The position numbers were made by a program, and so were the translations under genes. Shown here piece after piece: positions 37,953 through 60,379 of a DNA stretch of 64,000 bases; positions within the stretch are counted from its first letter, which is position 1, and each line of letters opens with the position of its first letter. This DNA is from Deltaproteobacteria bacterium. Lineage in GTDB: Bacteria > JAGRBM01 > JAHCIT01. Below the pieces are notes generated by a model. The model was not told the DNA's origin, made no database searches, and was given only the letters and a program-made list of their open reading frames with translations. The DNA lies in assembly GCA_026129095.1 (NCBI GenBank), contig JAHCIT010000006.1, positions 128,235 to 192,234 on the forward strand, read 5' to 3'.

Positions 37953-38004
37953 GGCAACTCCCAGCCCGTTCCGTTTAAGCACAGGCTACCATGCAGAATT
38001 ACGC

Positions 38005-44034: not shown

Positions 44035-44092
44035 GATGCAGCAAATGGCGGCCCGCAAGGCCGCCCGTCCCCTCGCTAATGATGAACTGAAC

Positions 44093-44169
<77 letters not shown>

Positions 44170-44189: not shown

Positions 44190-44221
44190 ACGAAAAGCCC
44201 CCGGTAAGGGGGCTTTTCGTT
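44190..44221. terminator. Bidirectional intrinsic terminator between the tRNA pair and the convergent catabolic operon
   Basis: ACGAAAAGCCCCC-GGTAA-GGGGGCTTTTCGT, a perfect 13-bp stem with A/T tracts on both sides. Confidence 0.9.
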
Positions 44222-44273: not shown

Positions 44274-45095
44274 CTACTCCCGCCACCTCGCATGGCCCCG
44301 GCTAATCACAGTAACGCCGTTCTGGTTCACGACGTCGAACTCGCATACCCCCGCCCCGGTCTTCCGGATCCGGGTCGTCACAGTGTCGCCGGGCAGCACC
44401 ATTTTCGAGAACCGTGCGCCGAACTCCGCCAGGCGCGGCGCCTCACCACGCATGCAGCTATCGACCACTGCCTGCGCCGCGAACGACAGCGTGCATAGCC
44501 CGTGCAGGATGACGCCGGGAAGCCCGGAGGCCTTCGCCGCGTCGTTGTTCATATGGATGGGATTCTTGTCGCCCGAAGCATTCCCGAACCGGGTCGCCTG
44601 ATCTGGAGCCACCTTCATCGGGACTTCAAAGTCGAACTTCGCAGGTTCTGGAACCGGTTCCGCCGGAGCACTTTTCCCGGAACCGGAGCCACGGATAAAG
44701 AACAGTGCCTCCGACTGGCTGACCTCTTTCCCCTCGCTGTCTTCGCTCGTCACCAGAATAGTGACTGTCTCGCCAGTGGGTTTTTCCTCGATGGAGAGGA
44801 TTTTTCCCCTGGACACCAGTCTCTCGCCAGCCTTCACCGGCCGCCGGTACCGGAACACATGTTCGCCGTGGACGAGCCGCATGATATTCGCACCGAGTTT
44901 CGGATGGAACATGCACTTGCCCATGGCGGGCAGACCGACCGTGAAGGCGAAACACGGCGGTGCGACCGGATTCTCCCCAAGGAAAAGAGGGTTGCCCTCG
45001 TTGACGGCCGCGGCGTAGGCCCGCACCTGATTGGCCTCGACCACAAATTCAACGGGCTTTCCTTCGTATCCTGCCAGTTCGCGGTTCATTCCCAT
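44274..45095 (-). CDS. Double hot-dog MaoC (R)-specific enoyl-CoA hydratase
   Basis: LVHGEH N-domain; SGDKNPIH (D-X4-H catalytic dyad), GLPGVILHGLCT, RFSKMVLPGD. Confidence 0.9.
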   Translation of the reverse strand: MGMNRELAGYEGKPVEFVVEANQVRAYAAAVNEGNPLFLGENPVAPPCFAFTVGLPAMGKCMFHPKLGANIMRLVHGEHVFRYRRPVKAGERLVSRGKILSIEEKPTGETVTILVTSEDSEGKEVSQSEALFFIRGSGSGKSAPAEPVPEPAKFDFEVPMKVAPDQATRFGNASGDKNPIHMNNDAAKASGLPGVILHGLCTLSFAAQAVVDSCMRGEAPRLAEFGARFSKMVLPGDTVTTRIRKTGAGVCEFDVVNQNGVTVISRGHARWRE

Positions 45096-45116
45096 GCCCA
45101 TCTGCCTCCCTTGTGC

Positions 45117-45932
45117 CTACTGGACCTTTCGCGGCAGGAACATCGGATGCGCCCACCGTGCGCCGCCATCGACCGTGAAGGTTTCGCCCGTGCAGAAATC
45201 GCAGGCCGGAGAGGCCAGGAACGTGATCACCTCGGCGATCTCCTCCGGTGTCCCGAACCGCCCCCACGGAATGCCCTTGCGGAGCGATTCGATCAGCGGC
45301 GGCGGATACTGCTTCAGGCCGCCCGTGTCGATCGTTCCCGGCGCCAGACTCACGACCCGAATGCCAAACTGCGCCCATTCGGTTGCAAGCGATTTTGTTA
45401 GGTTTGATACGGCCGCCCGCGCCGCCGAGGTGTGTGACACCCCTGGCATCCCCCGGTCGGTCGGCACGATGATGTTGATGATCACCCCGCCACGCCTGAG
45501 CATGCATGCCTTGGCCACCGCCTGCGTCATGTTCCAGGTGCCGTTCAGGTTGGTGTCAATCACCGCCCGCCAGCCCTTTTCTTCCATGACCGCCGCCGGA
45601 GCCGGAAACTGGCCACCCGCGTTATTGATCAGGATGTCGACAGTGCCATAGGCGTCCAGAACGGCCTTGATAAATCCGTCTACTGAAGCCCGGTCGCGGA
45701 TATCGAGAATGGCTCCGAGAGATTCCACTCCCGCTTCGCGGAGCTTCTCCAGACCGGCGTCCACATGGTTCTGCTTGCGCGATCCGATGGCGATTCGCGC
45801 TCCGAGACGTCCCATTTCAAGCGCCGCCGCCAGCCCGATCCCCGTGCCGCCGCCAGTCACGATCACCACCTTGCCCTTGAACAGGCCGGGCGCGAACAGG
45901 CGGGATGGCGGACCGGAATGGGACAACGGCAC
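45117..45932 (-). CDS. SDR of the trans-2-enoyl-CoA / 2,4-dienoyl-CoA reductase (PECR/AtuB-like) group
   Basis: LFAPGLF.GKV.IVTGGGTGIG, NNAGGQFPAP, KGWRAVIDTNL, HTSAARAAV (no YxxxK). Confidence 0.85.
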   Translation of the reverse strand: MPLSHSGPPSRLFAPGLFKGKVVIVTGGGTGIGLAAALEMGRLGARIAIGSRKQNHVDAGLEKLREAGVESLGAILDIRDRASVDGFIKAVLDAYGTVDILINNAGGQFPAPAAVMEEKGWRAVIDTNLNGTWNMTQAVAKACMLRRGGVIINIIVPTDRGMPGVSHTSAARAAVSNLTKSLATEWAQFGIRVVSLAPGTIDTGGLKQYPPPLIESLRKGIPWGRFGTPEEIAEVITFLASPACDFCTGETFTVDGGARWAHPMFLPRKVQ

Positions 45933-45939
45933 TTTCCTT

Positions 45940-47148
45940 TCAGTCGATCTCGAGTCCCGGCATCATCCGCCGGGCGATGATGAGCCGCTGGATCTGGCCC
46001 GTGCCCTCGAAGATATCAAACACCTGGATGTCGCGGAACAGTTTTTCGACGAGTTGTTCCTGTTCAGTGCCCGTGCCGCGCATGAGATCAAGAATTTCCC
46101 TCAGAATCTCCTTGGCGTGCTTGCAGGCATATGACTTGGACATCGATGCCTCGCGGGTATTGGGGATGCCGAGATCCGCCATGGATGCTGCATTCCAGAT
46201 CAGGAGCCTCGCTGCATGGATACGGCGGTCAAATTCAGCCACCTTCCGGCGCAAATGGGCTGACCAAGGAGCCGCTGTCCGGTGTTCACGCCGGACCCAG
46301 TCGGCAAACTCCTCATAGCCAGCCCGCGCCACTCCAAGTCCCATGGCCGCAACAAAAGGCCGGGTGGAGTCAAACGTCTTCATGGCTGTCCGGAATCCAC
46401 CCTTGGACGTTTCCGAATAGCGGCCCGGCCCTCCAAGAAGGTTTTCTTCCGGTACGCGGACGTCATCGAATACGAGTTCCGCCGTCTCCGAGGCACGGAG
46501 CCCGAGCTTCTTTTCGATCTTGCCAATGCTGAAACCGGGAGTCCCCTTCTCGACGATGAATGCACGGTGCCCGGCGCGGCCCAGTTTCGCATCCATCGAG
46601 GCGAACACAATCACCCAGCTCGCCCGGCCGCCGTTGGTGATAAAGCATTTACGGCCGTTAATTACCCACTCGTTCCCTTCCTTCCGGCAGGTGCTCCGGA
46701 TCCCGGCGACATCAGAACCGGCGCCAGGCTCCGTAAGTCCGTACGCTCCCCACCGGGCCGGTTCCTTCTTGCTGAAGATGCTGAAATACTTCTCCCGCTG
46801 CGCCTCGGTCCCCATGAAACCGAGCGGCGGGCCGCCAAGGCCAGGCCCTGGCAGGCTCATCAGGAGCGCCGCATCCCCCCACGAAAGCTCCTCGGCGGCA
46901 AGCGCACTCAGGCGGTTCACATCCGAGGGTCCTTTGGGTTTTTCCGATACCGCCTTTTTCTTCCTCGGTGCAGCATCCGCGCCAGTTCGCATGGTGATGC
47001 CCATCTTGTTCATTTTTTCGAGGAAAGCGTCATCGGCACGGCTCTCCCGGTCGCACCTGAGCGAGAGTGGACGAAAATCGTTCCTGGCGAGCTGGTGAAA
47101 CATGTCCCGCATCATCTTCTGCTGCGGGGAAAGCTCCAGATCGATCAT
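45940..47148 (-). CDS. Acyl-CoA dehydrogenase (FadE23-like)
   Basis: LPGPGLG, YGLTEPGAGSD, NGRKCFITNG, KLGLRASET, FDSTRP, FDIFEGTGQIQR. Confidence 0.93.
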   Translation of the reverse strand: MIDLELSPQQKMMRDMFHQLARNDFRPLSLRCDRESRADDAFLEKMNKMGITMRTGADAAPRKKKAVSEKPKGPSDVNRLSALAAEELSWGDAALLMSLPGPGLGGPPLGFMGTEAQREKYFSIFSKKEPARWGAYGLTEPGAGSDVAGIRSTCRKEGNEWVINGRKCFITNGGRASWVIVFASMDAKLGRAGHRAFIVEKGTPGFSIGKIEKKLGLRASETAELVFDDVRVPEENLLGGPGRYSETSKGGFRTAMKTFDSTRPFVAAMGLGVARAGYEEFADWVRREHRTAAPWSAHLRRKVAEFDRRIHAARLLIWNAASMADLGIPNTREASMSKSYACKHAKEILREILDLMRGTGTEQEQLVEKLFRDIQVFDIFEGTGQIQRLIIARRMMPGLEID

Positions 47149-47181
47149 TTTGCAAGTCTCCTGGCGGCTGAACGCGCTGGT

Positions 47182-47607
47182 TCAGTCCACCGGCGTGAAC
47201 GAATGGGTATGCAGCTTGCCGGAGATCGGGCACGGAACGAACTTGAGTTTCTGACCGATCCGGAGATCGCCGAACTTTCCATTGATCTTGGAAAGGATCC
47301 GGCCCGGACCCGGAAGTGCGGGCAGCTCCACGAGGCCGATCACTTCCGGCGCCATAAACCGGACCGACCTCGCCTGCGTGGTAAAGGCATAGAGAGTGGC
47401 GCTTTCATGAATATCAATCCACTGGACGCTGACTCCCCAGCATCTCGTACAGAACGCCCGGGGCGGATAGTCTACATGTCCGCACTTTTTGCACTTCGTT
47501 GAACAGAGCCGCTTTTCATCACGGAGAAGCCGTACATATTCGCCGAACATTGAATCGGCGTCATTGTTCATCGCCTGCCAGGAAAACTTGTCAATCAGGT
47601 CTTTCAT
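47182..47607 (-). CDS. DUF35 (Zn-ribbon plus OB-fold) protein
   Basis: CKKCG...YPPR..CTRC, then LYAFT...IGLVEL...LRIGQKL. Confidence 0.9.
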   Translation of the reverse strand: MKDLIDKFSWQAMNNDADSMFGEYVRLLRDEKRLCSTKCKKCGHVDYPPRAFCTRCWGVSVQWIDIHESATLYAFTTQARSVRFMAPEVIGLVELPALPGPGRILSKINGKFGDLRIGQKLKFVPCPISGKLHTHSFTPVD

Positions 47608-47613
47608 TGGCCG

Positions 47614-48819
47614 CTACGCCCCCATCCGTTCGAAAGTCATCACGATCGAGCCGTTGAGGCAGCCATGCTCGGCATGGATCAGCCCGAGGCGTGCATCCGG
47701 AACCTGCCGGCCGGGCGCCCGCGCCGTCAGGTGGCGGGTCACTTCGACCACTTCCATGAGCGGCGTCGCTCCAGCCGGGTGGCCATAGCAGATACGCCCG
47801 CCCGTCGGATTGACGACGATATCTCCACCCCAGGTATTGCGTCCTTCTGCAACCCAGCGGGCAGCCTTCCCCTTTGCGCACCAGCCCAGATCCTCATACA
47901 GCATCAGTTCTGTAGGCGCGAAAACGCCGTAAACCTCGGCCACATCCACATCGGTGGACTTGATACCCGCCTGGGTGCATGCCTCGGCAACGGCCATCTG
48001 CGCGGATTTGTATTCCGACATGGAACCAGTGACCGGACAGAAATGCTCCGGCTCGTGCCATTCGCCGACGCCGGTTACTCTTGCCACGGGTTTTTTCAGC
48101 CCTTTGGCGACGTCGAGCGAGGTTACCACCGCTGCCGCCGCTCCAGAGCTGAACGGACAGCACATGGGCAACGTCAGGGGCGGCGACTGCATCGGTGCAT
48201 TCAGGATGTCATCCTGCGTGGCCGGCTCCCGGAACTGGGCCCCCGGATGCTGGGCCGCGTGCTCGCGCAATCGCACCACACAATCAGCGACCTGTTCGAT
48301 CGTCGTGCCGGTTTCATGCATGTAACGCTGCCCGCTCATGGCATAGAACGGGATGGGCGCGCCGGCGCCGAATGCCCCGTCATAGGATCCCTGCAGACTC
48401 ACCTGCGCGTAGGCTCCCTGCCGCAGCGTCTGCTGGAAATCACTGGTATCGACGACGCTGGTACGGTGATCAGCGGCGATGACGAGCGCCGCACGGCAAC
48501 GGCCAAGCGTCACTTCGTCAACTGCGAACCTCAACGCCAGCGCCGCCGTGACCCCGCCGTTTTCCACCAGCGTCAGCGTTTTCGTGGGGATGCCCAGGTA
48601 TTTCCCCATATGCGCCGCGAACATCATGAACAGCTCCGGGTTGAGCCCCGGTGGCGTCAGAAAGAGTCCATCGATGTCTTTCGGATCGAGACCCGAGTCC
48701 TCCACCGCTTCCCGGGCCATCTCGAACATGACGTCCCGTATGGGCCGTGGGCCTTTCTTCGTAACCGGAGTTGCGGCCACCCCGGCAATTACAGCATCAA
48801 TACTGGCGCGTACAACCAT
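47614..48819 (-). CDS. SCP2/Ltp2-type thiolase-fold protein lacking the nucleophilic Cys
   Basis: IAGV..TP, ENGGVTA at the usual ACASG position, CCPFSSGAAA, DVAEVY, NPTGG...GHPAGAT, RQVPDA. Confidence 0.88.
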   Translation of the reverse strand: MVVRASIDAVIAGVAATPVTKKGPRPIRDVMFEMAREAVEDSGLDPKDIDGLFLTPPGLNPELFMMFAAHMGKYLGIPTKTLTLVENGGVTAALALRFAVDEVTLGRCRAALVIAADHRTSVVDTSDFQQTLRQGAYAQVSLQGSYDGAFGAGAPIPFYAMSGQRYMHETGTTIEQVADCVVRLREHAAQHPGAQFREPATQDDILNAPMQSPPLTLPMCCPFSSGAAAAVVTSLDVAKGLKKPVARVTGVGEWHEPEHFCPVTGSMSEYKSAQMAVAEACTQAGIKSTDVDVAEVYGVFAPTELMLYEDLGWCAKGKAARWVAEGRNTWGGDIVVNPTGGRICYGHPAGATPLMEVVEVTRHLTARAPGRQVPDARLGLIHAEHGCLNGSIVMTFERMGA

Positions 48820-49060
48820 GATTTAATGAGCTACCAAATATAGCTATTTATCGTCAAGATATATTTACTGAGCTTTATTCATATTAAGTGCAAAATTTCA
48901 AAATATATGACTATTTTATTAATAAAATCAGAATATTATATTACAAATCTCTCCGTGATCAGAACTTCTATAAATTATTTTCTTGTGTTACTTCGTATAC
49001 TATGTATTATTTGGGTCAATCGAGGGAGCACGAAGGCGGGCTCCTTCCGGAGGCGACCAC
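48820..49060. promoter_or_regulatory. AT-rich divergent promoter region with candidate operators
   Basis: Strongly AT-rich against the GC-rich background. Perfect palindrome ATTTTATTAATAAAAT (48913-48928), imperfect palindrome TACTTCGTATACTATGTA (48989-49006), TTGTGT-N16-TATTAT. Confidence 0.75.
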
Positions 49061-49062
49061 TG

Positions 49063-50634
49063 GTGGCGGTTCTGGTGCCCGATATCCTGCGCGAACAGGC
49101 GGCCAAGACCACGGGCCAGACAGCCATCGATATCATCGGTTCTGCCTCGATGACCTATGGAGAATGGGAAGCGCGCAGCAACCGGCTCGCCCGCGCCCTG
49201 GTCAAGGCTGGCCTCAAGCCGGATGACCGGGTCGCCCTCTGGTTCACCAATGAGGATGCACTCGATTATGCGGTCGGCTACTTCGCCATCCAGAAAGCTG
49301 GCGGCGTTACGGTGCCCGTAAATGCCCGGCTCACGGCCCGCGAGTCGGCCTGGATCCTGGAGCATTCGGCCTCCCGTTTTCTGCTCGCCCAGAGCCGCCA
49401 GTCCCCGGAACTCGCTGCCATCCTGAAGCTCGCCCCGGCAGGACTGAAAGCAGTCACCCGAGGGGGGCTCCCCGGCACATTCGGCTGGGATTCCTTCGAG
49501 TCCGGACAGAGCACGGATACCATTCAGGTGGAGCGCGCCCCCGACGATCTCGCCGATATTCTTTATACCTCCGGAACCACCGGGTTTCCCAAAGGTGTCG
49601 CCAGCACTCATGCCAACGTAGCTCTTGTCACCAAAGGACGTCTCGGTGCGATGTTCGCCGGACAGACGTTCCTGCATGCTGTCCCCTACTACACCTTCGC
49701 CGGCACCCACGCGATGCTGATGCTTCCGCTTACAGGTGGCATGACATCCGTAGTCCTGCCGAGGTTCGATGCGGCCCTGTTTCTGGAACTGATCGCCGAA
49801 CGCAAGGCGGCCTTGCTATATGCGGTACCTTCGATGCTGATGCTGATGCTCCGCGATCCATCCATCGGCGAATACGACTACCGCTCGCTCAAAATGATTC
49901 TCTACGGAACGGCGCCAATGCCGCCTGAGGGTATCCGCGGACTCGCCCAGAGGTTCCCGCAGGCGATGCAAATCAATGTCTATGGTCTCACCGAAGCCGG
50001 TGGAGCGGGTTGCACACTGCCGCCCACCGAGGCCCTCAAGCGGCCGGGCAGCATCGGCAAGCCTCTGCCTCCGACCGAAATCAGGATCTGTGACGGAAAC
50101 GGCCACGAACTCCCCGCCGGCGAGCAGGGTGAAATCTGGCTTCGCACACCGGGAAACCGCCGCCGCTATTTCAACAACGAGCAGGCGACGCGAGAAACCT
50201 GGACCGAAGACGGCTGGCTGAAAACAGGCGATGTGGGTCACTTTGACACCGACGGTTATCTCTATATCGACGACCGGCTCAAGGACATGATCATCCGGGG
50301 TGGGCACAACATCTTCGCCCTAGAGGTGGAAAACGTGCTCTATGAGCATCCGGCTGTCGCCGAGGTGGCCGTGGTCGGAGTACCGCACACGATCCTGGGT
50401 GAGGACGTGAAGGCATTCATCGTTCTGCGCGACGGCTCCAGTCCAGATGCCGATGAACTGCAGGCGTTCTGTGCCGGGCGGCTCGCCGATTACAAGCGCC
50501 CCCGTCAGATCGAATTTGTACGTGAGCTTCCACGCAATGCTCTTGGCAAGGTCTTGAAACGCGTCCTGCGAGGCGGCGATACAGCCGGTGCCCAGACCGG
50601 AAGCCAGCCGCCGGAAGGGGCTGCCCATGCCTGA
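49063..50634 (+). CDS. Acyl-CoA synthetase (AMP-forming)
   Basis: YTSGTTGFPKG, YGLTE, WLKTGD, DRLKDMIIRGG.N, LPRNALGK. GGAGG 9 nt before GTG 49063. Confidence 0.95.
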   Translation: MAVLVPDILREQAAKTTGQTAIDIIGSASMTYGEWEARSNRLARALVKAGLKPDDRVALWFTNEDALDYAVGYFAIQKAGGVTVPVNARLTARESAWILEHSASRFLLAQSRQSPELAAILKLAPAGLKAVTRGGLPGTFGWDSFESGQSTDTIQVERAPDDLADILYTSGTTGFPKGVASTHANVALVTKGRLGAMFAGQTFLHAVPYYTFAGTHAMLMLPLTGGMTSVVLPRFDAALFLELIAERKAALLYAVPSMLMLMLRDPSIGEYDYRSLKMILYGTAPMPPEGIRGLAQRFPQAMQINVYGLTEAGGAGCTLPPTEALKRPGSIGKPLPPTEIRICDGNGHELPAGEQGEIWLRTPGNRRRYFNNEQATRETWTEDGWLKTGDVGHFDTDGYLYIDDRLKDMIIRGGHNIFALEVENVLYEHPAVAEVAVVGVPHTILGEDVKAFIVLRDGSSPDADELQAFCAGRLADYKRPRQIEFVRELPRNALGKVLKRVLRGGDTAGAQTGSQPPEGAAHA

Positions 50635-51418
50635 CGCCCTTTCCGGCCTCCACCGCATTCACTACACCGATGCAGGGTCCGGTTATCCCGTTCTGTTCGG
50701 GCATTCCCTCACTTTCGATGGCACGATGTTCGAGGCCCAAACAGCCGTCCTGTCGAAGAAGTTCCGGTGCATTTCCATCGACTTCCGGGGACACGGCAAG
50801 AGCTCGAAACTGGACGAACCCTATACGCTGGACGACAACGCCGCCGACGTGCTGGCTGTGGCCGACACCATTGGTGCGAAGCGGTTTCACTACGTGGGCC
50901 TTTCCATGGGCGGAATGACCGGCATGCGGGTGGTGCTCCGGGCACCGGAACGGATGACGGCACTCGCGCTTCTCGACACCAGCGCTGGCGAGGAAGACCC
51001 GGCAAAACGAGCAGCTTATTCGGACTACGCAAAACAGTCCCGGGACAAGCCGCCCATGCCCCCCATGATCGAAATGACCCTCGGCCTCATGTTTTCACCT
51101 GCCTTCATGAAGCGCGAACCGGCTGTAACGGATCGCTACCGTAAGATTCTTCTTTCCAATGACGTAAATGCCATCTCGCAGGCAACCCTGGCCGTCACAA
51201 ACCGCGACAGCATTCTGGAGCGTATTGGCTCGATCAAGTGTCCAGTGCTCGTTATCGTGGGATCACAGGATATCGCCACGCCGCCAGCCCAGGCCCGTGC
51301 CATCGCCAGTTCGATTCCCAATGCCGCACTCGAAGTCATTGAAGGTGCTGGTCACATGACCCCGGTCGAAGCCCCCGAACAGGTCACACGTCTCTTACTG
51401 GAATTCCTGGGAGAATAG
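50627..51418 (+). CDS. Alpha/beta hydrolase (PcaD enol-lactone hydrolase-like)
   Basis: DFRGHG.S, GLSMGG, GSQD, GAGH. Overlaps the ligase stop. Confidence 0.9.
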   Translation: MPDALSGLHRIHYTDAGSGYPVLFGHSLTFDGTMFEAQTAVLSKKFRCISIDFRGHGKSSKLDEPYTLDDNAADVLAVADTIGAKRFHYVGLSMGGMTGMRVVLRAPERMTALALLDTSAGEEDPAKRAAYSDYAKQSRDKPPMPPMIEMTLGLMFSPAFMKREPAVTDRYRKILLSNDVNAISQATLAVTNRDSILERIGSIKCPVLVIVGSQDIATPPAQARAIASSIPNAALEVIEGAGHMTPVEAPEQVTRLLLEFLGE

Positions 51419-51421
51419 CGC

Positions 51422-52219: not shown

Positions 52220-52228
52220 GGAACGGGC

Positions 52229-53266
52229 ATGTTCGGCTTTGCACTAAGCGATGAAGAGGAAATGATACGGTCGACCGCCGAGGCGTTCGCCCGCTCCGAA
52301 CTGCTTCCCAAGGTACGCGACCACGAAGCGGCCCAAGCCCTTCCCGCTCACCTCTCGAAGAAGTTCGACGACACCGGTCTTGGGCTGGCCGGTGTTCCGG
52401 AAACCGCTGGTGGCGCGGGACTCGGTGCATTTGCCGATACACTGGTTTACTACGAACTGTCCCGCGCCGATGCCGGTGCCGCCTTCGCCCTAGGACTTTC
52501 CGGTCTTGGGTTACGGATTTTTGGCCTGAATACCGGCCCTGTCCATCTGGCGAGCGACATTGACCAGAGGCTGGAGGCCTCTGGCGGCTTTGTCAGCGGG
52601 AAGTGGCCCCTTTCGTTCGGACGCGAAACGGGCCGGGCACTTGTACTTCTGTCAGGTTCCGACTCCGCCGTGTTCATCGAGACCGGAGTTTCAGCCACTC
52701 CCTGCCGGCCAGCGGCACTGGATACGGCACAGGGATGGACACTCTCGTTCGACAAGGCCCCAGTCAAGAAAACAGTTCCTGCGGCCGCATTCCAGAACCA
52801 CACCCGCCAGCTTGCCGCCACACTGCTGGCAGGCCTTTCGGCCTGCGCACTGGAATATGCCCGCGCCTATACGATGGAACGCAAGACCTTCGGGCGCACA
52901 CTGGCACACCATCAGGGAGTCGCCTTTGTTCTGGCTGAGATGGCCATGCGGACCGAGGCATCAAGACTGGCTGTCTGGCGATCGGCATGGCGCATGGACA
53001 GCGGGAAAGAGGCCCGGTTCGACACGGCTGCTGCCTTTGTCGAAGCGGCACAGAACGCCCTGTTCGTCTGCGATCAGGCCCTTCAGCTCCTCGGCGGTCA
53101 TGGCTACATGAAGGACCATTTCGTGGAGAAATATTTCCGCGAGGCACGTGTCCTTTCGCAGCTTTGGGGCGGCGTGGACGGCGCCCTGATGACAGCCGGG
53201 GCTTTCTCAACCTCGCTGAGCACCGAAATCGGGTTTCCGGAGCTGGTAGAGGGTCGAACCCCATGA
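52229..53266 (+). CDS. Degenerate acyl-CoA dehydrogenase subunit (FadE24-like partner)
   Basis: ACAD N-terminus and C-terminus (RKTFG...HQGVAF.LAEM, QLLGGHGYMKD..VEKY.R) are present. The middle TEP..GSD FAD motif and the C-terminal EG are lost. ATGA overlap with the next gene. Confidence 0.85.
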   Translation: MFGFALSDEEEMIRSTAEAFARSELLPKVRDHEAAQALPAHLSKKFDDTGLGLAGVPETAGGAGLGAFADTLVYYELSRADAGAAFALGLSGLGLRIFGLNTGPVHLASDIDQRLEASGGFVSGKWPLSFGRETGRALVLLSGSDSAVFIETGVSATPCRPAALDTAQGWTLSFDKAPVKKTVPAAAFQNHTRQLAATLLAGLSACALEYARAYTMERKTFGRTLAHHQGVAFVLAEMAMRTEASRLAVWRSAWRMDSGKEARFDTAAAFVEAAQNALFVCDQALQLLGGHGYMKDHFVEKYFREARVLSQLWGGVDGALMTAGAFSTSLSTEIGFPELVEGRTP

Positions 53267-54495
53267 TCGACCTTTCCCTCGACAATGCCAGCCGCGCACA
53301 GCTCACCATGCTGAAATGGCTGGGGGAAAAGTATCTCCGGCCCCTAGGGATAGAGGCGGACCGGCTGGAGCGTCCCATTCCACCGGACCATGAGTTCTTC
53401 CTGAAAGTGCTCGAGATGGGCCTGGGTGGACGCGGGCTGAATGATGAGGAGGACAACGGGAAAAAGAGCCGCGATCCAGACAAGCCTTCCTCGGGCGCCC
53501 GGCGGGGAGTAATTTTCGCTGAGGAAGCTTCCTACTGGGATCGTGGCTCTGCCGTTGCCTTGCCGGGACCGGGTCTTGGTGGCGCACCCATTCACCACAT
53601 GGGAACGCCCGAGCAAAAGGAGCGGTTCCTGGGGCCATTCCGCCAGAAAGACCGCCCTCGCTGGGGTGCTTTTGGAATGACCGAGGCAGGTGCGGGCTCG
53701 GATGTGGCCGGCATACGCACGACGGCGGTGAAAGACGGAGATCACTATGTCCTGAACGGGTCGAAGACCTTCATATCCAACTCGCAGCGGGCTGAATGGG
53801 TTGTGGTTTTCGCTACGGTGGACCCGTCGAAGGGACGCGATGCTCACCGCGCCTTTGTTGTTGAAAAGGGAACGCCGGGATTTTCCATCACACGCGTGGA
53901 AAAGAAGATCGGCCTGCGGGCCTATGAAACCTGCAGCTTCACGCTGGACAACTGCCGCATCCCGGTGGCGAACTTGCTGGGTGGCGAGGCGTTCTACGAA
54001 GGCCGGGCAGGATTCAAGGGTGCCATGAAATCATTCGATTCCACCCGCCCCATTGTCGCCGTTATGTCGGTCGGCATCGCCCGTGCAGCGTGGGAACATG
54101 CCCGCGATTTCATCCGGCAGAACTACGTTACAGATCGCCCAGTTCCCCGCTATCAGCGAATTCTTGAGCGGCTGGCGCTCATGCGGATGAAAATAGACCA
54201 TGCCCGGCTTCTCTGCTGGCGTGCCGCCTGGCTCGCTGACCACAAGAAACCCAATACGCTGGAAGCCTCCATCGCAAAGGCCTACGCGCCGCCGGTAGCA
54301 CTCGAAGCAACCCGTCTTGGCCTGGAGATAATGGCCGACGCCGGTATCACTGGCGATGCGTATCTCGACAAGCTGTACCGCGATGTGAAGGTACTCGACA
54401 TCGTCGAAGGCACCCAGCAGATCCAGAGAATCGTGATCGCGAGACGGATCGTGGATTATCCCGGCGTGTCCGGAGAACCAGCCGACAAGGAGTAA
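53263..54495 (+). CDS. Acyl-CoA dehydrogenase (FadE23-like)
   Basis: LPGPGLG, FGMTEAGAGSD, KIGLRA.ET, FDSTRP, LDIVEGTQQIQR. Confidence 0.93.
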   Translation: MIDLSLDNASRAQLTMLKWLGEKYLRPLGIEADRLERPIPPDHEFFLKVLEMGLGGRGLNDEEDNGKKSRDPDKPSSGARRGVIFAEEASYWDRGSAVALPGPGLGGAPIHHMGTPEQKERFLGPFRQKDRPRWGAFGMTEAGAGSDVAGIRTTAVKDGDHYVLNGSKTFISNSQRAEWVVVFATVDPSKGRDAHRAFVVEKGTPGFSITRVEKKIGLRAYETCSFTLDNCRIPVANLLGGEAFYEGRAGFKGAMKSFDSTRPIVAVMSVGIARAAWEHARDFIRQNYVTDRPVPRYQRILERLALMRMKIDHARLLCWRAAWLADHKKPNTLEASIAKAYAPPVALEATRLGLEIMADAGITGDAYLDKLYRDVKVLDIVEGTQQIQRIVIARRIVDYPGVSGEPADKE

Positions 54496-54502
54496 CATTT
54501 CC

Positions 54503-55627
54503 ATGCCCGAAAAAGGCCGCGCCGCCATATTCCGTGAAGCCCAGAAACCGATGGAGATCCGGGAGTTCGACGCTCCGGAACCCAAGGAAGGCGAGCTGCT
54601 CGTCCGGAATCTTGTCGCCAATATCTGCGGGTCCGATCTCCACATCTGGCTCGGCCATACACCCATTGGTACCCAGCTCAAGATGGACATGGTACTGGGA
54701 CACGAGATGGTGAGCCGGGTCGTGAAATCCGGGAAAGGCCGGAGCCGGGACGCATTGGGCCGGTCCCTCAAGGAAGGCGACCGGGTGGTATTCGCCTATT
54801 ACAAGCCTTGCGGTCACTGCTATGCCTGTCTGGATGGCGCCTTTCACACCTGCGAGATATCCCTCAACACTGTCTTCATGCCAGTGAGCCCCCAGAACGC
54901 CTTCGTAGGCGGTTATGCAGACTACTACCTCATCTCGCCCAAGCAGGTGGTCCTGAAGGTACCCGACGAACTCGGCGACGATGAGGTGGCCGGCGTCAAC
55001 TGCGCCTTGAGCCAGGTGATCCACGGACTTCTGGACGCCGATTTGAGGTTTGGCGAAACGGTAGTCATCCAGGGTGCCGGCGGGCTTGGCCAGTATGCCA
55101 CCGCCGTCGCCCGTGAGATGGGAGCTTCCCGGGTTATCGTGATAGACGGCATCGACAGCCGGATAGACATGGCGAAAAAGATGGGGGCCGACGCGATTAT
55201 TGATATCCGGCAGTTCCCGGACGGACAGGCCCGCGTCAAGGAGATCAAGAAGCTCACCGATAACTGGGGTGCCGATCTCGTGGTCGAAGTGGTTGGAATA
55301 CCGGATGTCATGCCCGAAGGCGTCCGCATGATGGGCCGCCGGGGACGCTACCTGACGATGGGAAACGTGATGCCGCGGGCCTCCTACAAGGAAGACCCAT
55401 CAATCCTGGTAGGCGGCAACCGCTCGATCCTGGGCCGCTCGCTCTATCCCGCCTCGGTGCTCCGTAAGGCGCTCGATTTCCTCGTCCGGGCAAAAAACCG
55501 GTATCCGTTCTCGACAGTGCCGGTCCATTACCCGCTGGAAAAGATCAACGATGCGTTTTCCGACGCTGAAACGTTCGGCAAGAGCCACAAGGACATTACT
55601 CGCGCCGCCATCAAGCTGGCTGCCTGA
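54503..55627 (+). CDS. Zn-dependent alcohol dehydrogenase (MDR, TM0436/CamD-like)
   Basis: ICGSD, LGHE, CGHCYAC......C structural Zn site, QGAGGLG. Confidence 0.92.
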   Translation: MPEKGRAAIFREAQKPMEIREFDAPEPKEGELLVRNLVANICGSDLHIWLGHTPIGTQLKMDMVLGHEMVSRVVKSGKGRSRDALGRSLKEGDRVVFAYYKPCGHCYACLDGAFHTCEISLNTVFMPVSPQNAFVGGYADYYLISPKQVVLKVPDELGDDEVAGVNCALSQVIHGLLDADLRFGETVVIQGAGGLGQYATAVAREMGASRVIVIDGIDSRIDMAKKMGADAIIDIRQFPDGQARVKEIKKLTDNWGADLVVEVVGIPDVMPEGVRMMGRRGRYLTMGNVMPRASYKEDPSILVGGNRSILGRSLYPASVLRKALDFLVRAKNRYPFSTVPVHYPLEKINDAFSDAETFGKSHKDITRAAIKLAA

Positions 55628-55637
55628 AAGGACAGAA

Positions 55638-57110
55638 ATGCCGCTCGATCACGCTGCCGCCATCCAGGAACTGGACGCTACACGTCCCGGCCGCCTTTAT
55701 ATCAATGGGGAGTGGAGAGACGCCAGCGACGGCCTTGCGGTCACCGACCCGGCCACCGGAAAACTATTTGGCCAGATAGGCCAGGCATCACCCGAAAACG
55801 TGTCCGATGCCGTAGCCGCCGCCCGCGAGGCGTACTGCGGCAGCTGGCGCAAGCTTTCACCGGGAAAACGCCGTGAAGCGATTCTCAGGCTGGCTGCTCT
55901 CACCGAACAGCACGCTGCCGAACTAAACAGACTACTCACGCTGGAAATGGGCGTACCGGCCCAGATCACGTCCCGGCTGGGAGCCATCTCGCTACAGAAA
56001 AACCTCGAGTATTTCGCCGGGTGGATGGACAAGATCTATGGCGAAGTGATCCCGGTTCCGGGAGCGTTCGATTATGCGGTCCGGGAACCCATCGGTGTCG
56101 TCGGGGCAATCATTCCCTGGAACACGCCGCTCCTGTTCGTCGGCAGCAAGCTTGGGCCGGCTCTGGCAACCGGGAACACTGTGGTACTCAAACCCAGTGA
56201 ACTGGCCTCACTCGCCATACTCCGCTGGGCAGAAAAATGCCTTGCCGAGTCGGGTATTCCGCCCGGCGTCGTGAATATCGTTACCGGTGACGGACGTACT
56301 GGTTCCGCCCTGGCAGGTCATCCTGGCATCGACAAACTCTCTTTCACCGGCTCGGTGGACACCGGCCGGAAGGTGGCCGAACTGGCTGGCAGAAACCTCA
56401 CCAAGGTGCACATGGAACTCGGCGGCAAGTCACCCACGATCATTTTCAAGGACGCCAACCTTACCAAGGCGACCATGCAGACCTCTTTCGGCATTTTCGG
56501 GCTGTCCGGCCAGACATGTGCCGCCTGCAGCCGGGTATATGTGGAAGATCCGGTCTATGAGCAGATGGTGGGCAACATCGCCTCATTCTCGAAGGGGCTG
56601 GCACCAGGCGACCCACTAAAAAAGTCCACCATCCTGGGCCCGCTTGCCGCCGAGCGGCAGCTCCAGCGCGTTCAGGCCTACATTGAGGCAGGGAAAAAAG
56701 ATGCACGGCTCGTTGCCGGCGGCGAGCGGCTCGGCGGAGATCTTTCAGAAGGATTTTTCCTCGGACCGACAGTATTCGCCGATGTGAAATCCGATTCAGT
56801 GATTTCCCGGGAGGAGATATTCGGACCGGTAGTGGCGGTAACTCCGTTCAAGAAGACGGACGAAGCCATCGAACTGGCCAACGGGACCGAATACGGTCTC
56901 GCTGCCGGAATCTGGACGGAAAACATCACGACAGCGCTCAAGACATCGCAGGCGATCGATGCTGGTGTCATCTGGATCAACAGCTACGGAAGCCTTCCGG
57001 CTGCTGCGCCATTCGGAGGCATGAAAAAATCCGGTTACGGCCGCGACGGCGGTCGTGATGCATTGCTGGAATACACCCAGGTCAAGAACGTCTTTGTCGA
57101 TCTGGCCTGA
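55638..57110 (+). CDS. Aldehyde dehydrogenase
   Basis: IPWN, KPSE, FTGS, ELGGKSP, GQTC, EEIFGP, PFGG.K.SG.GR. Confidence 0.96.
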   Translation: MPLDHAAAIQELDATRPGRLYINGEWRDASDGLAVTDPATGKLFGQIGQASPENVSDAVAAAREAYCGSWRKLSPGKRREAILRLAALTEQHAAELNRLLTLEMGVPAQITSRLGAISLQKNLEYFAGWMDKIYGEVIPVPGAFDYAVREPIGVVGAIIPWNTPLLFVGSKLGPALATGNTVVLKPSELASLAILRWAEKCLAESGIPPGVVNIVTGDGRTGSALAGHPGIDKLSFTGSVDTGRKVAELAGRNLTKVHMELGGKSPTIIFKDANLTKATMQTSFGIFGLSGQTCAACSRVYVEDPVYEQMVGNIASFSKGLAPGDPLKKSTILGPLAAERQLQRVQAYIEAGKKDARLVAGGERLGGDLSEGFFLGPTVFADVKSDSVISREEIFGPVVAVTPFKKTDEAIELANGTEYGLAAGIWTENITTALKTSQAIDAGVIWINSYGSLPAAAPFGGMKKSGYGRDGGRDALLEYTQVKNVFVDLA

Positions 57111-57133
57111 GAACCAAGGGAGGGAATGAAACC

Positions 57134-58177
57134 ATGAAAAGCGGAATGTTCTATCTGTTCGAAACCCTGGGAAAGAAAAGCGTCACGGATCTCTACCATC
57201 AGGCACTGAGCGAATGCTGCTATGGCGAGGAACTGGGCTTCACGGGCGCACATCCCGCCGAGCACCATTTCTCGACCCATTACGGGATCATGCCGCGAGT
57301 CGAACTGTTCCTGGCGGCGCTTTCCACCCGGACGACAAGGCTCCGTCTCATCCCCAGCGTCATTGTGGCAGCGCTCTCCGATCCTGTCCGGCTTGCCGAA
57401 GATTCCGCCATGCTGGACATCCTCAGCAACGGGAGGTTCACCTACTCCATCGGCGCGGGTTACCGGAAATACGAATTCGCCAAGCTGGGTGTGGACGTGG
57501 AGGAAAACAGGTCACGTCTCCGCGAAGCCGCCGAGATCGCTGAACTCGCCTGGAAACAGGAGAAGTTCTCTTACAAGGGTCACCACCACCAGATCGAGGA
57601 TCTGCAGATCGTCCCCAAGCCCGAACGGAAAGACGGCTCGGTCCCTGAAATCTGGATCAATACCGGCACTCCGGACCAACTCGTCTGGGCGGCACAGCGG
57701 GGTTATGTGGTCCTGCCAACGGCGGGGTTTTCGGTCGCCTCGTTCAAAAAGGACCGCGATACCTATGTCGCCGAATCGAAACAGGCGGGGCACAACCCGG
57801 CAAAAATAGAGGCCCCGTTCTTCAAGTGGATCTATGTGGGGGAGACCGACCAGAAGGCTCAGGAAACTGGCCAAAAAGCTTTCCTTGAAACCATTCAGGC
57901 GTTCTTTGTCGGTGGGGAAAGGCTCATTGCCCAGCTCACCAAGCGTATCCAGCTTCCGCCCGAAATGATGGGGGATCCGAACAAGTTGCTTCTGTCGCCG
58001 GATCTGGGCGCTTTCGTTTGCGGGTCGCCAGAAACGGTCGCCAGGCAGTTGCGTTCCTTCAGGGATGCGGGGGCAACCTACTTCATCGGTGGATTCAATA
58101 TCGGTGCGCTGCCCACCGAGAAAGTGCGGCGTTCCATGGAACTGTATGCTAAGGAGGTCGCACCAGCGCTGGCATAG
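57134..58177 (+). CDS. Luciferase-like (LLM) flavin-dependent oxidoreductase/monooxygenase
   Basis: EELGF....AEHHF, DPVRLAED.AMLD.LSNGR, GAGY, GSPETV, SMELYAKEV.P. Confidence 0.92.
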   Translation: MKSGMFYLFETLGKKSVTDLYHQALSECCYGEELGFTGAHPAEHHFSTHYGIMPRVELFLAALSTRTTRLRLIPSVIVAALSDPVRLAEDSAMLDILSNGRFTYSIGAGYRKYEFAKLGVDVEENRSRLREAAEIAELAWKQEKFSYKGHHHQIEDLQIVPKPERKDGSVPEIWINTGTPDQLVWAAQRGYVVLPTAGFSVASFKKDRDTYVAESKQAGHNPAKIEAPFFKWIYVGETDQKAQETGQKAFLETIQAFFVGGERLIAQLTKRIQLPPEMMGDPNKLLLSPDLGAFVCGSPETVARQLRSFRDAGATYFIGGFNIGALPTEKVRRSMELYAKEVAPALA

Positions 58178-58209
58178 TTACCCCAGCCCGATGCCAGGAT
58201 TTGAACCCG

Positions 58210-58731
58210 ATGGCCAATAGCCCAGACAGCACCACGCCGCGAAGCCGCTCCGAGACCGAGGAAGCTCTGGTTGACGGGGTTATTCGCATCGTCGCCGAAG
58301 TCCGCAAGCGTGCCGACCGGATGGGCCGGGAACACGGCGCAACGATGCTCCAGATACAGGCGGTCAAGATCCTGCACGAAAAGGGGTCAATCACCATTTC
58401 CGAGCTTGCACAGGAACTTCACCTGAACCAGAGCACCGTGAGCAGTCTCGTTGACCGCATGGAGGCGAACGGGCTGGTCCGACGGCTCACAGCCAACGAC
58501 GACCGCCGCAAGGTCAAGCTGCGGATTACGGAAAAGGCGGACGACCTGGCCATGACCACACCGGTATCGCCGATCGACATGTTCCGTCAGATCCTCAAGC
58601 CGTTAACCGGCGACGAGATGGCCCATCTTTCACGGATGCTCGCCAAGATCGAAAAAGCCTTCTTCGAAAGCGTCGAGGCAATCGACCGGGAAAAACCGGC
58701 CAGGCAGAAGAAACAGTCCGCAGGGGGCTGA
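58210..58731 (+). CDS. MarR family transcriptional regulator
   Basis: Q...L.....ITISELA..L.L..STVS.LVDRME..GLV.R....DDRR...L.IT. Confidence 0.93.
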   Translation: MANSPDSTTPRSRSETEEALVDGVIRIVAEVRKRADRMGREHGATMLQIQAVKILHEKGSITISELAQELHLNQSTVSSLVDRMEANGLVRRLTANDDRRKVKLRITEKADDLAMTTPVSPIDMFRQILKPLTGDEMAHLSRMLAKIEKAFFESVEAIDREKPARQKKQSAGG

Positions 58732-58735
58732 ACTT

Positions 58736-60379
58736 CTAGATCGATATCGCGCCCTTGCGGAAATCGCTGCCGCCAATCTTGACGTTGACCAGCGCCGGCC
58801 TGGGACTCTCGAAAGCGCGTTTCAGTGCCGGATGGATCTGGTCCGGAGCTTCCACCCACTCCCCGTGACAGCCCAGCCCCTCGGCAACCTTGTCGTAGCG
58901 CGTGTAGTCGAGTGTCGTCGCAAACAGCCGGTCCTTCCCGTACAAATCGCGCTGCCCCCGGAGTATCTGCGTCCAAGCAGCATCGTTGCCAATCACGCCG
59001 ACAATCTTGATTCCCTGCCGTGCCATTGATTCGAACTCGAACCCGTTAAGGCCGAAACTCCCATCTCCGTACACAATGATGACGTCATGGTCCGGGCGGG
59101 CGAGCTTGGCTGCGATGGCATAGCCGGGACCAACGCCAAGTGTCCCAAGGGGGCCGGGATCCATCCAGTGCCCGGCACCCCGCACTTTCAGCGTATAGGC
59201 CGCCGTCGCCACGAAATCGCCGCCGTCTCCAACAACAATTGTCTTGTCGCCGATAAAGCGGTTCAGCTCGTGACACACCCGGAGCGGGTTGATCGGATTA
59301 TCATTGGAAGTGAGTTCCGCCTCCATCTTGGCAAGATGTGCCGCCTCGATGGAGCGCATCGATTCCAGCCACTTGGCTACATCCGTCCGCTGGCGGCCTT
59401 TCAGCGCCTTCGCCAGTGCATCCAGCACCCAGCCGGTATCGCCGACAATCCCCACTTCAACGCCCCGGTTGTGGCCAATGATTCCCCCGTCGAGGTCGAC
59501 CTGAATCAGCTTGGCGTTCTTGTTGAACGTTCCATCGCGGCCATAGTTGAGCCGGAAGTCGAGCGGCGTCCCAAAAATCAGGATGACATCGGCCTGTTTG
59601 AGCGCGTCCTTGCGCGACCGGGAGAAAAACGACGGATGATCCGGACCGAGCGCGCCCCGCGCCATGCCGTTCAGGAAGCACGGGACGCGGAGCACATCCA
59701 GAAACTCGTCCAGCGCCTCGCGCCTGTCAGACCAGTACCATTGGGAACCGACGATCACCATCGGTTTTTCGGCGGTGGAAAGGAGATCAGCTGCTGCATC
59801 TATAAAGACCGGCTCGCCAGCGGGCCGCGCCTTTGTTCGGTAATTCCTGGGAAACACGCAGGTCGCCTCGTTCACCGGGCTGATGAGATAGTCGACCGGC
59901 ATCTCCAGGAATACCGGACCCGGCACGCCGCTCGTCGACACCCGGAATGCCATTGCCACATATTCAGCAAGACGCCGTGGCTCCGGAACCGACGTGGACC
60001 ACTTGGTGATGGGTCGCATCAGTTCCACATGGTTCATGTCCTGCAAGCTGCCCATGTCCTGGAGTGCACGGGGCCCCTGTCCGCCAATCACAATCATCGG
60101 CACCGCTGCCCGCCAGGCGTTCGCCACGGCCGTCACTGCATCGGTGACGCCGGGGCCGGCCGTGACGACGGCAACGCCGGGCGTCCCCGTCACCCGCGCC
60201 CAGCCATCGGCCGCATGGGCGGCTGACTGCTCATGCCGGAAATCCACGGTACGAATTCCCTCGTCATGGCAACCGTCATAAATGGCCATGACATGACCAC
60301 CGCACAAGGTGAAAATATGCGAGATGCCCTCAGCCTTGAGCGCCTTGGCGACTACCCGGCCCCCGTGAATCATTCCCAT
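58736..60379 (-). CDS. ThDP-dependent enzyme, ILVBL/HACL2-IlvG-like (candidate 2-hydroxyacyl-CoA lyase)
   Basis: HGG, FTLCGGH, RHEQSA, TAGPG, DGGDFV, WMDPGPLGTLGVG, GDGSFG...GND, C-terminal DFRKGAISI. Confidence 0.85.
   Translation of the reverse strand: MGMIHGGRVVAKALKAEGISHIFTLCGGHVMAIYDGCHDEGIRTVDFRHEQSAAHAADGWARVTGTPGVAVVTAGPGVTDAVTAVANAWRAAVPMIVIGGQGPRALQDMGSLQDMNHVELMRPITKWSTSVPEPRRLAEYVAMAFRVSTSGVPGPVFLEMPVDYLISPVNEATCVFPRNYRTKARPAGEPVFIDAAADLLSTAEKPMVIVGSQWYWSDRREALDEFLDVLRVPCFLNGMARGALGPDHPSFFSRSRKDALKQADVILIFGTPLDFRLNYGRDGTFNKNAKLIQVDLDGGIIGHNRGVEVGIVGDTGWVLDALAKALKGRQRTDVAKWLESMRSIEAAHLAKMEAELTSNDNPINPLRVCHELNRFIGDKTIVVGDGGDFVATAAYTLKVRGAGHWMDPGPLGTLGVGPGYAIAAKLARPDHDVIIVYGDGSFGLNGFEFESMARQGIKIVGVIGNDAAWTQILRGQRDLYGKDRLFATTLDYTRYDKVAEGLGCHGEWVEAPDQIHPALKRAFESPRPALVNVKIGGSDFRKGAISI

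Follow-up and report, generated by a model that had tools for sequence, protein, structure and literature searches.

Peroxisomes break down phytol by alpha- and beta-oxidation, using alcohol dehydrogenase (ADH), aldehyde dehydrogenase (ALDH), acyl-CoA synthetase, PECR, PHYH, HACL1, MFE-2 and SCPx. The Pseudomonas Atu pathway for acyclic terpenes comprises AtuB, AtuA and the geranyl-CoA carboxylase AtuC/F. Bacterial bile-acid side-chain removal employs a ligase, a heteromeric acyl-CoA dehydrogenase (ACAD), a MaoC hydratase, an aldolase and ALDH, in that order, and a tertiary hydroxyl precludes thiolysis (PMC8399759). Ltp2 and Sal, two characterised thiolase-fold aldolases, act on steroid side chains; a glycine at the nucleophile position of Sal rules out thiolysis, a tyrosine is its base, and its products are acetyl-CoA and an aldehyde (PMC12329534). 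Here we describe a cluster of 15 genes in a 64,000-nucleotide stretch of Deltaproteobacteria bacterium DNA (contig JAHCIT010000006.1 of assembly GCA_026129095.1; hereafter 'the window'), one of which encodes a cysteine-less thiolase-fold protein that is probably a retro-aldolase.

The gene identities, active-site residues and co-conservation of this cluster are observed, and every reaction and the substrate are inferred from them. We give even weight, for and against, to the conserved unit being a CoA-dependent lipid-shortening cycle, in which a retro-aldol cut replaces thiolysis and the carbonyl product is recycled. The cluster consists of the following features, with the basis of each call in parentheses:

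44274..45101, minus strand: double hot-dog MaoC/MFE-2-type R-hydratase, candidate hydratase feeding the aldolase (Pfam, motif)
45117..45932, minus strand: PECR/AtuB-type short-chain dehydrogenase/reductase (SDR), enoyl-CoA reductase-like, auxiliary (PDB matches, motif)
45940..47148, minus strand: ACAD1, catalytic-type acyl-CoA dehydrogenase (Pfam, residues)
47182..47607, minus strand: DUF35 (zinc ribbon and OB fold), partner of the thiolase-fold protein (Pfam, adjacency in loci)
47614..48819, minus strand: Cys-less SCP2-thiolase-fold protein, probable retro-aldolase (residues Gly89, Tyr297, His255, His347, Glu384-His385)
48820..49062, no strand: AT-rich divergent spacer, presumed promoter/operator region (GC scan)
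49063..50634, plus strand: acyl-CoA ligase, start set from the orthologue in locus L001 (Pfam, NCBIfam)
50627..51418, plus strand: alpha/beta hydrolase, PcaD-like, probable esterase (triad Ser93/Asp215/His243)
51422..52219, plus strand: crotonase-fold protein without both hydratase glutamates, His145 kept (alignment)
52229..53266, plus strand: ACAD2, short non-catalytic ACAD subunit (Pfam, catalytic Glu absent)
53263..54495, plus strand: ACAD3, catalytic subunit (Glu382), 4-nt overlap with ACAD2 (residues)
54503..55627, plus strand: zinc alcohol dehydrogenase, TIGR03366-like but below cut-off, zinc ligands intact (Pfam, NCBIfam)
55638..57110, plus strand: aldehyde dehydrogenase (Glu260, Cys294) (Pfam, residues)
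57134..58177, plus strand: LuxA-type luciferase-like monooxygenase (LLM; Glu43-His44-His45), probable Baeyer-Villiger-type carbonyl oxygenase (motif, fold)
58201..58731, plus strand: MarR regulator, lineage-specific (Pfam)
58736..60379, minus strand: thiamine diphosphate (ThDP) enzyme, PRK05858/HACL2-like, a module neighbour that is not co-conserved (NCBIfam, PDB, loci)

The thiolase-like protein is predicted with high confidence (predicted local distance difference test score 93.5) to have the SCP2-thiolase fold, and a fold search returned Z scores of 46-55 to SCP2-type entries versus about 39 to classical thiolases. Gly89 aligns with the nucleophilic cysteine of the archaeal thiolase 6esq, and the HDCF motif that carries the acid/base cysteine reads YGVF. 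Aligned with CtSal, Gly89 pairs with a glycine and Tyr297 with a tyrosine. Gly88 and Gly89 are both present in 76 of 76 covering homologues, Tyr297 in 78 of 79 close homologues, and His255, His347, Glu384 and His385 are invariant in all 79. In a FastTree phylogeny of 140 of the 151 representatives (11 fragments were left out), the Glu-His sequences number 18; 16 of them make up most of a 17-member clade (support 0.996), which lies within a 28-member clade (support 0.999) containing all 18. The protein shares with the Ltp2/Sal aldolases a glycine in place of the nucleophile, a tyrosine base and a DUF35 partner gene. Retro-aldol cleavage is its probable activity, with His385 or His255 as candidate general acid, and it may work like Sal and Ltp2 while belonging to neither. 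A previous reading of the window from its letters alone (the sequence-only reading) took this protein for the counterpart of the SCPx thiolase. We rejected an SCP2/SCPx thiolase identity because the fold matches but the N-terminal nucleophilic cysteine and HDCF do not, and the cluster has no dehydrogenase for a 3-keto intermediate.

The genes travelling with the LLM define the conserved unit. The LLM subfamily is narrow (60 of 87 matches at 40% identity or more), and a 58-member alignment of it, used as the query in one genome scan, yielded 17 loci in which we sought the window genes by tblastn and blastp. ACAD2 is present in 16 loci, ADH in 15, ACAD3 in 8, ALDH in 7, the hydrolase in 5, the ligase, the crotonase and the thiolase-like gene with DUF35 in 4 each, MarR in 2 and the PECR-like SDR in 1; MaoC and the ThDP gene are in none. 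Counts for ACAD3, hydrolase, ligase, crotonase and PECR are those above a bit-score threshold, with weaker paralogues in further loci. DUF35 adjoins the thiolase-like gene in all four loci holding that gene, and three lineages have this pair together with the LLM. The 17 loci are not independent but represent about six lineages, and the seven that keep only LLM, ADH and ACAD2 together are one lineage (LLM identity 66-97%). The gene grouping is beyond chance, its core being recurrent in about six lineages; gene order within the module is shuffled between lineages, yet the core recurs, which points to functional linkage. Locus labels include Myxococcales, Bdellovibrionota, Deltaproteobacteria, Planctomycetota, Ca. 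Calescibacterium and HR19, among others. Four loci are labelled Rickettsiales or Enterobacterales; their LLMs are 61-74% identical to the Deltaproteobacteria/Planctomycetota group, and we doubt the labels.

A weak second test counted contigs of equal size between match lists. The LLM and thiolase-like lists, of similar size (60 and 79 clusters), share six such contigs, five of them long enough for both genes; among 20000 jittered sets, none reached six shared contigs and two reached five. We detected no TPP enzyme, 3-hydroxyacyl-CoA dehydrogenase, MaoC or flavin reductase by Pfam among the 143 called open reading frames (ORFs) of the 17 loci that lack a window match; the gene caller behind them is crude, and the tblastn tests for ThDP and MaoC are independent of it. 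Searches of plasmids returned thiolase-like relatives of at most 36% identity among the matches listed (20 of 287) and only partial matches to ACAD2, and a protein atlas gave no more than generic family names for the crotonase and the LLM.

Locus L001 is a syntenic copy of the cluster with the same order from DUF35 to MarR, 67-84% identity for 10 of 11 genes and 47% for ACAD2. After MarR (L001 11640-19216), inspection by eye showed a tRNA-Pro-like 3' half, for which ARAGORN reported no whole tRNA, then mobile-type genes; what is read there is a small pair resembling a toxin-antitoxin system, and several C-terminal cassettes of Rhs-like type accompanied by immunity-like genes. An alpha/beta hydrolase gene follows MarR in L003. 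A MerR-family regulator (225-250 aa) heads or sits in the module of four other loci, replacing MarR, and in one lineage four loci have a 385-455 aa protein close to the module. The latter has no Pfam or NCBIfam match (Pfam alone for the L012 copy). Their positions in the loci scan are:

L004 17565-18290, L005 7892-8569, L009 11194-11946, L015 2669-3409: MerR-family gene
L004 11509-12873, L007 570-1727, L009 13427-14731, L012 2-1078: recurrent 385-455 aa protein

A second ACAD2/ACAD3-type pair lies beside the LLM in three loci (L007 7166-9932, L009 6868-9840, L015 17837-20901), accompanied by a second hydrolase (L007, L009) or a PECR-like SDR (L015). This arrangement suggests two chain-type-specific dehydrogenases.

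The LLM carries the Glu-His-His motif of LuxA, invariant in 58 of 58 members. The structures nearest its model are carbonyl-oxygenating enzymes of the LuxA type, namely RslO1, LuxA and E. salina LuxA (template modelling (TM) score 0.85-0.87, 21-24% identity). An LLM from Caenibius turns the methyl ketone of progesterone into an acetate ester (PMC12239570). We lean slightly towards a Baeyer-Villiger-type action of the cluster LLM on a carbonyl.

All 19 ACAD2 sequences lack the catalytic glutamate, and ACAD2 does not match the Pfam middle domain; ACAD3 and ACAD1 keep the glutamate, and ACAD1 is 44% identical to the L001 orthologue of ACAD3. As in heteromeric ACADs, the ACAD2 and ACAD3 genes are in tandem and only one subunit has the glutamate; a similar tandem pair occurs in Nocardia farcinica. 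ACAD2 and ACAD3 probably form a heteromer, possibly of the FadE23/FadE24 kind. The crotonase has glycine and phenylalanine at the two hydratase glutamate positions, and His145 is kept in five of five orthologues. With both glutamates lost it is not a standard hydratase, and is a candidate isomerase, decarboxylase or non-canonical hydratase. MaoC keeps the dyad Asp178-x4-His183, the hydrolase triad is intact, and so are the catalytic residues of ADH and ALDH. The SDR best matches human PECR (1yxm, E 9e-60) and then AtuB (6lln, 6e-52), as the sequence-only reading had proposed, and lacks the YxxxK motif. Its one close orthologue (45%) in the 17 loci is the SDR beside the second ACAD pair of L015. 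Every family that was named is present, although catalytic residues are missing from the crotonase, ACAD2 and the thiolase-like protein. MaoC and PECR are rare or absent in the loci (0 and 1 of 17), a test restricted by locus edges: all four loci with the aldolase pair end within 1.2 kb of it on one side.

In the proposed cycle, the ligase would form an acyl-CoA, the ACAD2/ACAD3 heteromer (or ACAD1) would desaturate it, and MaoC or the non-canonical crotonase would add water. The Cys-less thiolase-fold protein, with DUF35, would then split the 3-hydroxyacyl-CoA into acetyl- or propionyl-CoA and an aldehyde or ketone. An aldehyde would pass to ALDH. A beta-branch gives a tertiary alcohol, which is not oxidisable, and so leaves a ketone after cleavage; the LLM would insert oxygen into this ketone to give an ester, the hydrolase would release an alcohol from the ester, and ADH and ALDH would convert the alcohol to an acid that is ligated again. 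Neither a 3-hydroxyacyl-CoA dehydrogenase nor a flavin reductase was found among the 15 cluster genes by Pfam; the former would be missing because the retro-aldol route for a beta-branch needs none.

Methyl-branched acyclic isoprenoid chains are our first-ranked substrate, a tentative choice. Sphingolipid-derived 3-hydroxy acids come second and are unlikely; steroids come third, with no ring genes and with steroid models far below cut-off. For isoprenoids, the cluster may, somewhat short of an even chance, constitute a beta-methyl bypass that uses neither a carboxylase nor alpha-oxidation. A phytol- or isoprenoid-derived acyl-CoA would yield acetyl-CoA and a methyl ketone through a new His/Glu-type retro-aldolase, and a LuxA-type Baeyer-Villiger enzyme, the esterase, ADH and ALDH would follow. 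Alternatively, ceramides would be broken down by a retro-aldol route that depends on CoA. Either route, if true, would mean that uncultured Myxococcota, Bdellovibrionota and hot-spring lineages use thiolase-fold aldolases on substrates other than steroids. Marine organic geochemistry holds that bacteria convert phytol to 6,10,14-trimethylpentadecan-2-one and this ketone to an acetate ester. Within the journals it covered, our literature search found no primary paper or genes for this phytol-to-ketone-to-ester chemistry, and the cluster makes the question testable with four soluble proteins.

Several observations weigh against this cycle. The fold search ranks true thiolases (Z 54.7) above Sal (50.1) and Ltp2 (47.7), and does not tell the two activities apart. 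In 77 of 79 homologues the motif has Val299 in third place, neither the histidine of Ltp2 nor the essential cysteine of Sal. Position 345, that of the Ltp2 acid tyrosine (Tyr344), is variable, with tyrosine in 17 of 79. Both of the known general acids are therefore lost. Cysteine occurs at position 87 in 18 of 79 sequences and at position 220 in 55 of 79. Identity of the LLM to any solved enzyme is 20-24%, a level at which Baeyer-Villiger chemistry and hydroxylation are not told apart, and Pfam found no flavin reductase near it (15 cluster genes and 143 other locus ORFs). Conservation of a hydratase is not apparent, given that MaoC is in none of the 17 loci and the crotonase lacks its glutamates, and a PECR-type reductase opposes enoyl-CoA hydration. 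The aldolase pair is in only four of the 17 loci, and the lineage of seven loci keeps only LLM, ADH and ACAD2. The cycle accounts neither for the crotonase and the flavin supply nor for which way the PECR-like step runs, and it does not explain why ACAD2 stays with LLM and ADH in one lineage without its partner.

The same retro-aldol core could act on sphingolipids, an unlikely reading that nonetheless survives best among the rivals. ADH and ALDH would oxidise C1 of a ceramide or sphingoid base to an acid for the ligase to activate, and the aldolase would cut the pre-existing 3-hydroxyacyl-CoA into N-acylglycyl-CoA and hexadec(en)al. ALDH or the LuxA-like LLM would oxidise the aldehyde, PECR would reduce hexadecenoyl-CoA, and the HACL2-like neighbour would take 2-hydroxy acyl chains. 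This gives PECR and the HACL2-like enzyme a role, by the mammalian pathway, and dispenses with a hydratase, in agreement with the absence of MaoC from all 17 loci. In L004 and L005 the module itself contains endoglycoceramidase (EGCase)-like genes of glycoside hydrolase family 5 (GH5), with E values of 7e-27 and 9e-30 and scores well under the cut-off (PDB match to EGCase II, E 7e-28). GH5 genes are absent from the window and the other 15 loci, EGCase-like enzymes also act on steryl glucosides (SglA is among the PDB matches), and no ceramidase was recognised. In Pseudomonas sphBCD, a sphingosine oxidase is paired with a predicted pyridoxal phosphate-dependent aldolase, SphD, which is dispensable (PMC11893366). 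The tight LLM-ADH-ACAD2 link is explained no better by sphingolipids than by the proposed cycle.

It is improbable that the module removes steroid or triterpenoid side chains in the manner of Shy/Sal/Sad or ChsH/Ltp2, the LLM serving as a Baeyer-Villiger enzyme of the progesterone type. The enzyme order is that of bile-acid side-chain removal (PMC8399759), the Caenibius LLM offers a precedent on progesterone (PMC12239570), L004 and L006 carry 3-beta-hydroxysteroid dehydrogenase-like genes, and L009 a GMC oxidase. However, neither the cluster nor the 143 other locus ORFs include a recognised ring-degradation gene, and steroid models score far below cut-off (CasG 289/750, FadD3 346/657, EchA19 217/400, HsaD 62/400). 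DUF35 is free-standing and unfused to MaoC, and the YDHF and YDCY motifs are not kept. A gene-for-gene match to an aromatic or steroid pathway was also rejected, with PcaD (188/256), StyD, BbsA (44/250), BbsB (153/750) and CasG all below cut-off.

The sequence-only reading had favoured alpha-oxidation, in which the LLM would 2-hydroxylate a branched acyl-CoA, the ThDP lyase would free formyl-CoA, and MaoC and an SCPx-like thiolase would complete beta-oxidation. We consider this route slightly less probable again. LLMs can alpha-hydroxylate thioesters, as does MupA, and the polyketide/nonribosomal peptide synthetase (PKS/NRPS) oxygenase domain 6ket is a structural neighbour of the cluster LLM (TM 0.83). 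MupA acts only on a beta-keto thioester on its acyl carrier protein (ACP) (PMC10952193), which leaves unsupported the idea that the LLM replaces the 2-oxoglutarate (2OG)-dependent hydroxylase; MupA and the Caenibius enzyme are likened to the cluster LLM by description. No PhyH Pfam match was found among the 15 cluster genes, and the nucleophilic cysteine and a 3-hydroxyacyl-CoA dehydrogenase are both missing. The SDR does match PECR best, and the ThDP enzyme has HACL2-type residues.

The ThDP enzyme belongs with 2-hydroxyacyl-CoA lyases (HACL) and oxalyl-CoA decarboxylases (OXC) rather than acetohydroxyacid synthases (AHAS), as had been proposed. Its best NCBIfam match is PRK05858 (540 bits, cut-off 587), and its best PDB matches are HACL/HACS enzymes (287 bits versus 183 for AHAS I). 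It has the HACL-type Gln113 and, where AcHACL has E493 (a position located through a proxy, the AcHACL-like L022 protein), Ile472, which is kept in all 120 closest matches. Table 1 of PMC13327070 gives I554 at this position for human HACL2, the same residue pair, and is also our source for the HACL1 substrate in phytol breakdown. We rejected identity as AHAS (TIGR00118 336/538; no regulatory subunit or ilvC among scanned neighbours), as AcHACL (Ile472 not Glu493; NF058623 383/600) and as OXC (Gln113 where the OXC Q128-equivalent has Glu; PRK09259 296/557). Formyl-CoA-releasing chemistry is plausible from these residues. Databases label this family acetolactate synthase and the thiolase-like proteins acetyl-CoA acetyltransferase or BbsB, and such labels should be read with caution.

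The ThDP enzyme looks like a neighbour of the module rather than a fixed part. It was taken for a cluster member, which the loci contradict: the LLM-centred scan found it in none of the 17, the 79%-identical syntenic copy L001 included. Lack of co-conservation is an outcome that the sequence-only reading itself had named as refuting, and we rejected the gene as part of the conserved unit. In the window it sits 0.56-2.2 kb downstream of the LLM, and 14 of the 17 loci extend at least 3.1 kb downstream of the LLM with no ThDP gene there. The family is huge (7639 of 8000 scored), and the sole equal-size contig shared between the LLM (60) and ThDP lists (best 120 of 7639) is a 99%-identical copy of the same locus. 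The gene converges on MarR, 4 nt from its stop. A NapH-like 4Fe-4S gene in the same orientation ends 74 nt upstream of it, and the two may be transcribed together, apart from the cluster. Its GC content at third codon positions (GC3; 0.73) is low like that of the cluster, and it could act from elsewhere in other genomes. Plasmid relatives of 44-48% identity share these two residues. In both annotated regions of that group they adjoin formyl-CoA transferase genes, in one also the oxalate/formate antiporter gene oxlT; two further regions carry no annotation. At L018 5980-11054 and L020 3736-11187, PRK05858-like ThDP genes annotated as TPP-binding only lie with formyl-CoA transferase, acetate-CoA ligase and succinate-CoA ligase genes and have Gln, not the Glu of OXC; they may represent a kind of oxalyl-CoA decarboxylase that has escaped recognition.

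In the least probable reading, the genes form a loosely assembled island for scavenging lipids. Alkanes, wax esters or mid-chain alcohols would enter through the oxygenase, ADH, ALDH and ligase, genes elsewhere would complete conventional beta-oxidation, and the thiolase-fold protein would be non-catalytic or unrelated. This would fit the constancy of the LLM-ADH-ACAD2 trio, the lipases, long-chain ligases, thioesterases and FadL-type gene around the module and the aldolase pair's restriction to four of 17 loci. Against it, the invariant polar His255, His347, Glu384 and His385 (79 of 79) argue for catalysis, and the pair recurs with the LLM in three lineages.

The cluster is arranged as the sequence-only reading described it, with 15 ORFs of the named families (Pfam, NCBIfam) and two divergent, tightly packed and partly overlapping operons around an AT-rich spacer. 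The leftward operon has five genes, in the order thiolase-like, DUF35, ACAD1, SDR and double hot-dog MaoC (gaps 6-33 nt); the rightward operon has nine, in the order ligase, hydrolase, crotonase, ACAD2, ACAD3, ADH, ALDH, LLM and MarR (gaps -8 to 29 nt). The 243-nt spacer, at 24% GC, holds the lowest 200-nt stretch of the 64 kb (mean 62%), and its L001 equivalent is also AT-rich. We found no sigma-70 consensus match in the spacer; a promoter and terminator scan was no richer than shuffles (4 vs 5.0; 16 vs 15.0), and a repeat search and window/L001 alignment gave no clear operator.

The cluster begins 105 nt right of a tRNA-Val/tRNA-Asp pair (43959-44169); 44190-44220, between tRNA-Asp and the MaoC stop, forms a hairpin with a perfect 13-bp stem. 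Mean GC3 is 0.71 for the 15 cluster genes versus 0.81 for the 24 genes left of the tRNAs (p 6e-7). Genes right of the cluster are also low (0.61-0.76), so composition gives no particular tie between the ThDP gene and the cluster. No second copy of the tRNA-Asp 3' end occurs in the window, leaving an island boundary without support. Upstream of the ThDP gene, 60454-61781 (minus) encodes a small membrane protein and the NapH/CcoG-like 4Fe-4S membrane protein, and 62583-63344 (plus) a stand-alone protein like the C-terminal ACT part of GlnD only. A DapA-family aldolase gene at 63350-64000 (minus) is cut by the window end; the partial protein scores 228 bits to the HpaI model TIGR02313 versus 205 to DapA, and an aromatic catabolic cluster may lie beyond. 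Left of the tRNAs, 35620-40248 encodes an ABHD18-like hydrolase, a polyketide-cyclase/lipid-binding protein and a DUF7064/7065 protein; at the flanks of the module, L004 and L005 likewise have ABHD18-like genes and L012 has a cyclase-fold gene. The gene at 21814-24084 (minus) encodes a ThDP protein of 756 aa that resembles a fused E1-alpha/beta or a transketolase and has only weak Pfam matches.

Compared with peroxisomal phytol breakdown, the cluster shares ADH, ALDH, ligase, PECR and a hot-dog hydratase, with an HACL-group enzyme adjacent, but has no 2OG hydroxylase, dehydrogenase domain or SCP2-fold nucleophile, and its lyase is not co-conserved. The family-level counterparts that had been proposed therefore stand for the former five, not for hydroxylase, thiolase or lyase membership. 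With the Atu pathway the cluster shares an AtuB-like SDR, a ligase, an ACAD, a crotonase and the problem of the beta-methyl block; AtuA and AtuC/F are absent from the 15 genes, no carboxylase Pfam occurs in the cluster or loci, and the block would here be solved by a retro-aldol cut and oxygen insertion. The LLM has the TIM barrel and Glu-His-His motif of LuxA-type (class C) flavin monooxygenases but forms its own subfamily of about 60 clusters, with no lux or PKS genes nearby. The ThDP enzyme resembles HACL2/ILVBL and PRK05858 (IlvG-like) in Gln113 and Ile472, a likeness drawn, for human HACL2, through the published residue table; it differs in scoring below the PRK05858 cut-off, and its oxalate-linked plasmid relatives share both residues.

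Our literature search, with most subscription journals outside its coverage, found no account of the gene set or the aldolase-like clade, in keeping with the earlier view of an undescribed, co-ordinated lipid-catabolic cluster; of that view the lipid catabolism holds and, on present evidence, the alpha-oxidation does not. The closest described relatives are the bile-acid and sterol retro-aldol systems (StdA/Scd/Shy/Sal/Sad and ChsE/ChsH/Ltp2). Like them, the cluster has a ligase, a heteromeric ACAD, MaoC, ALDH, and DUF35 with a Cys-less thiolase-fold protein bearing a catalytic-type tyrosine, and no hydroxyacyl-CoA dehydrogenase. It differs in having YGVF and a conserved Glu-His instead of YDHF/YDCY, a free DUF35 and no steroid ring genes, and it adds the LLM, esterase, ADH, PECR-like SDR and Glu-less crotonase. 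If the assignment is true, a separate aldolase clade, whose active site differs and which is linked to oxygenase, esterase, ADH and ALDH genes but to none for steroid rings, would extend retro-aldol shortening to other lipids.

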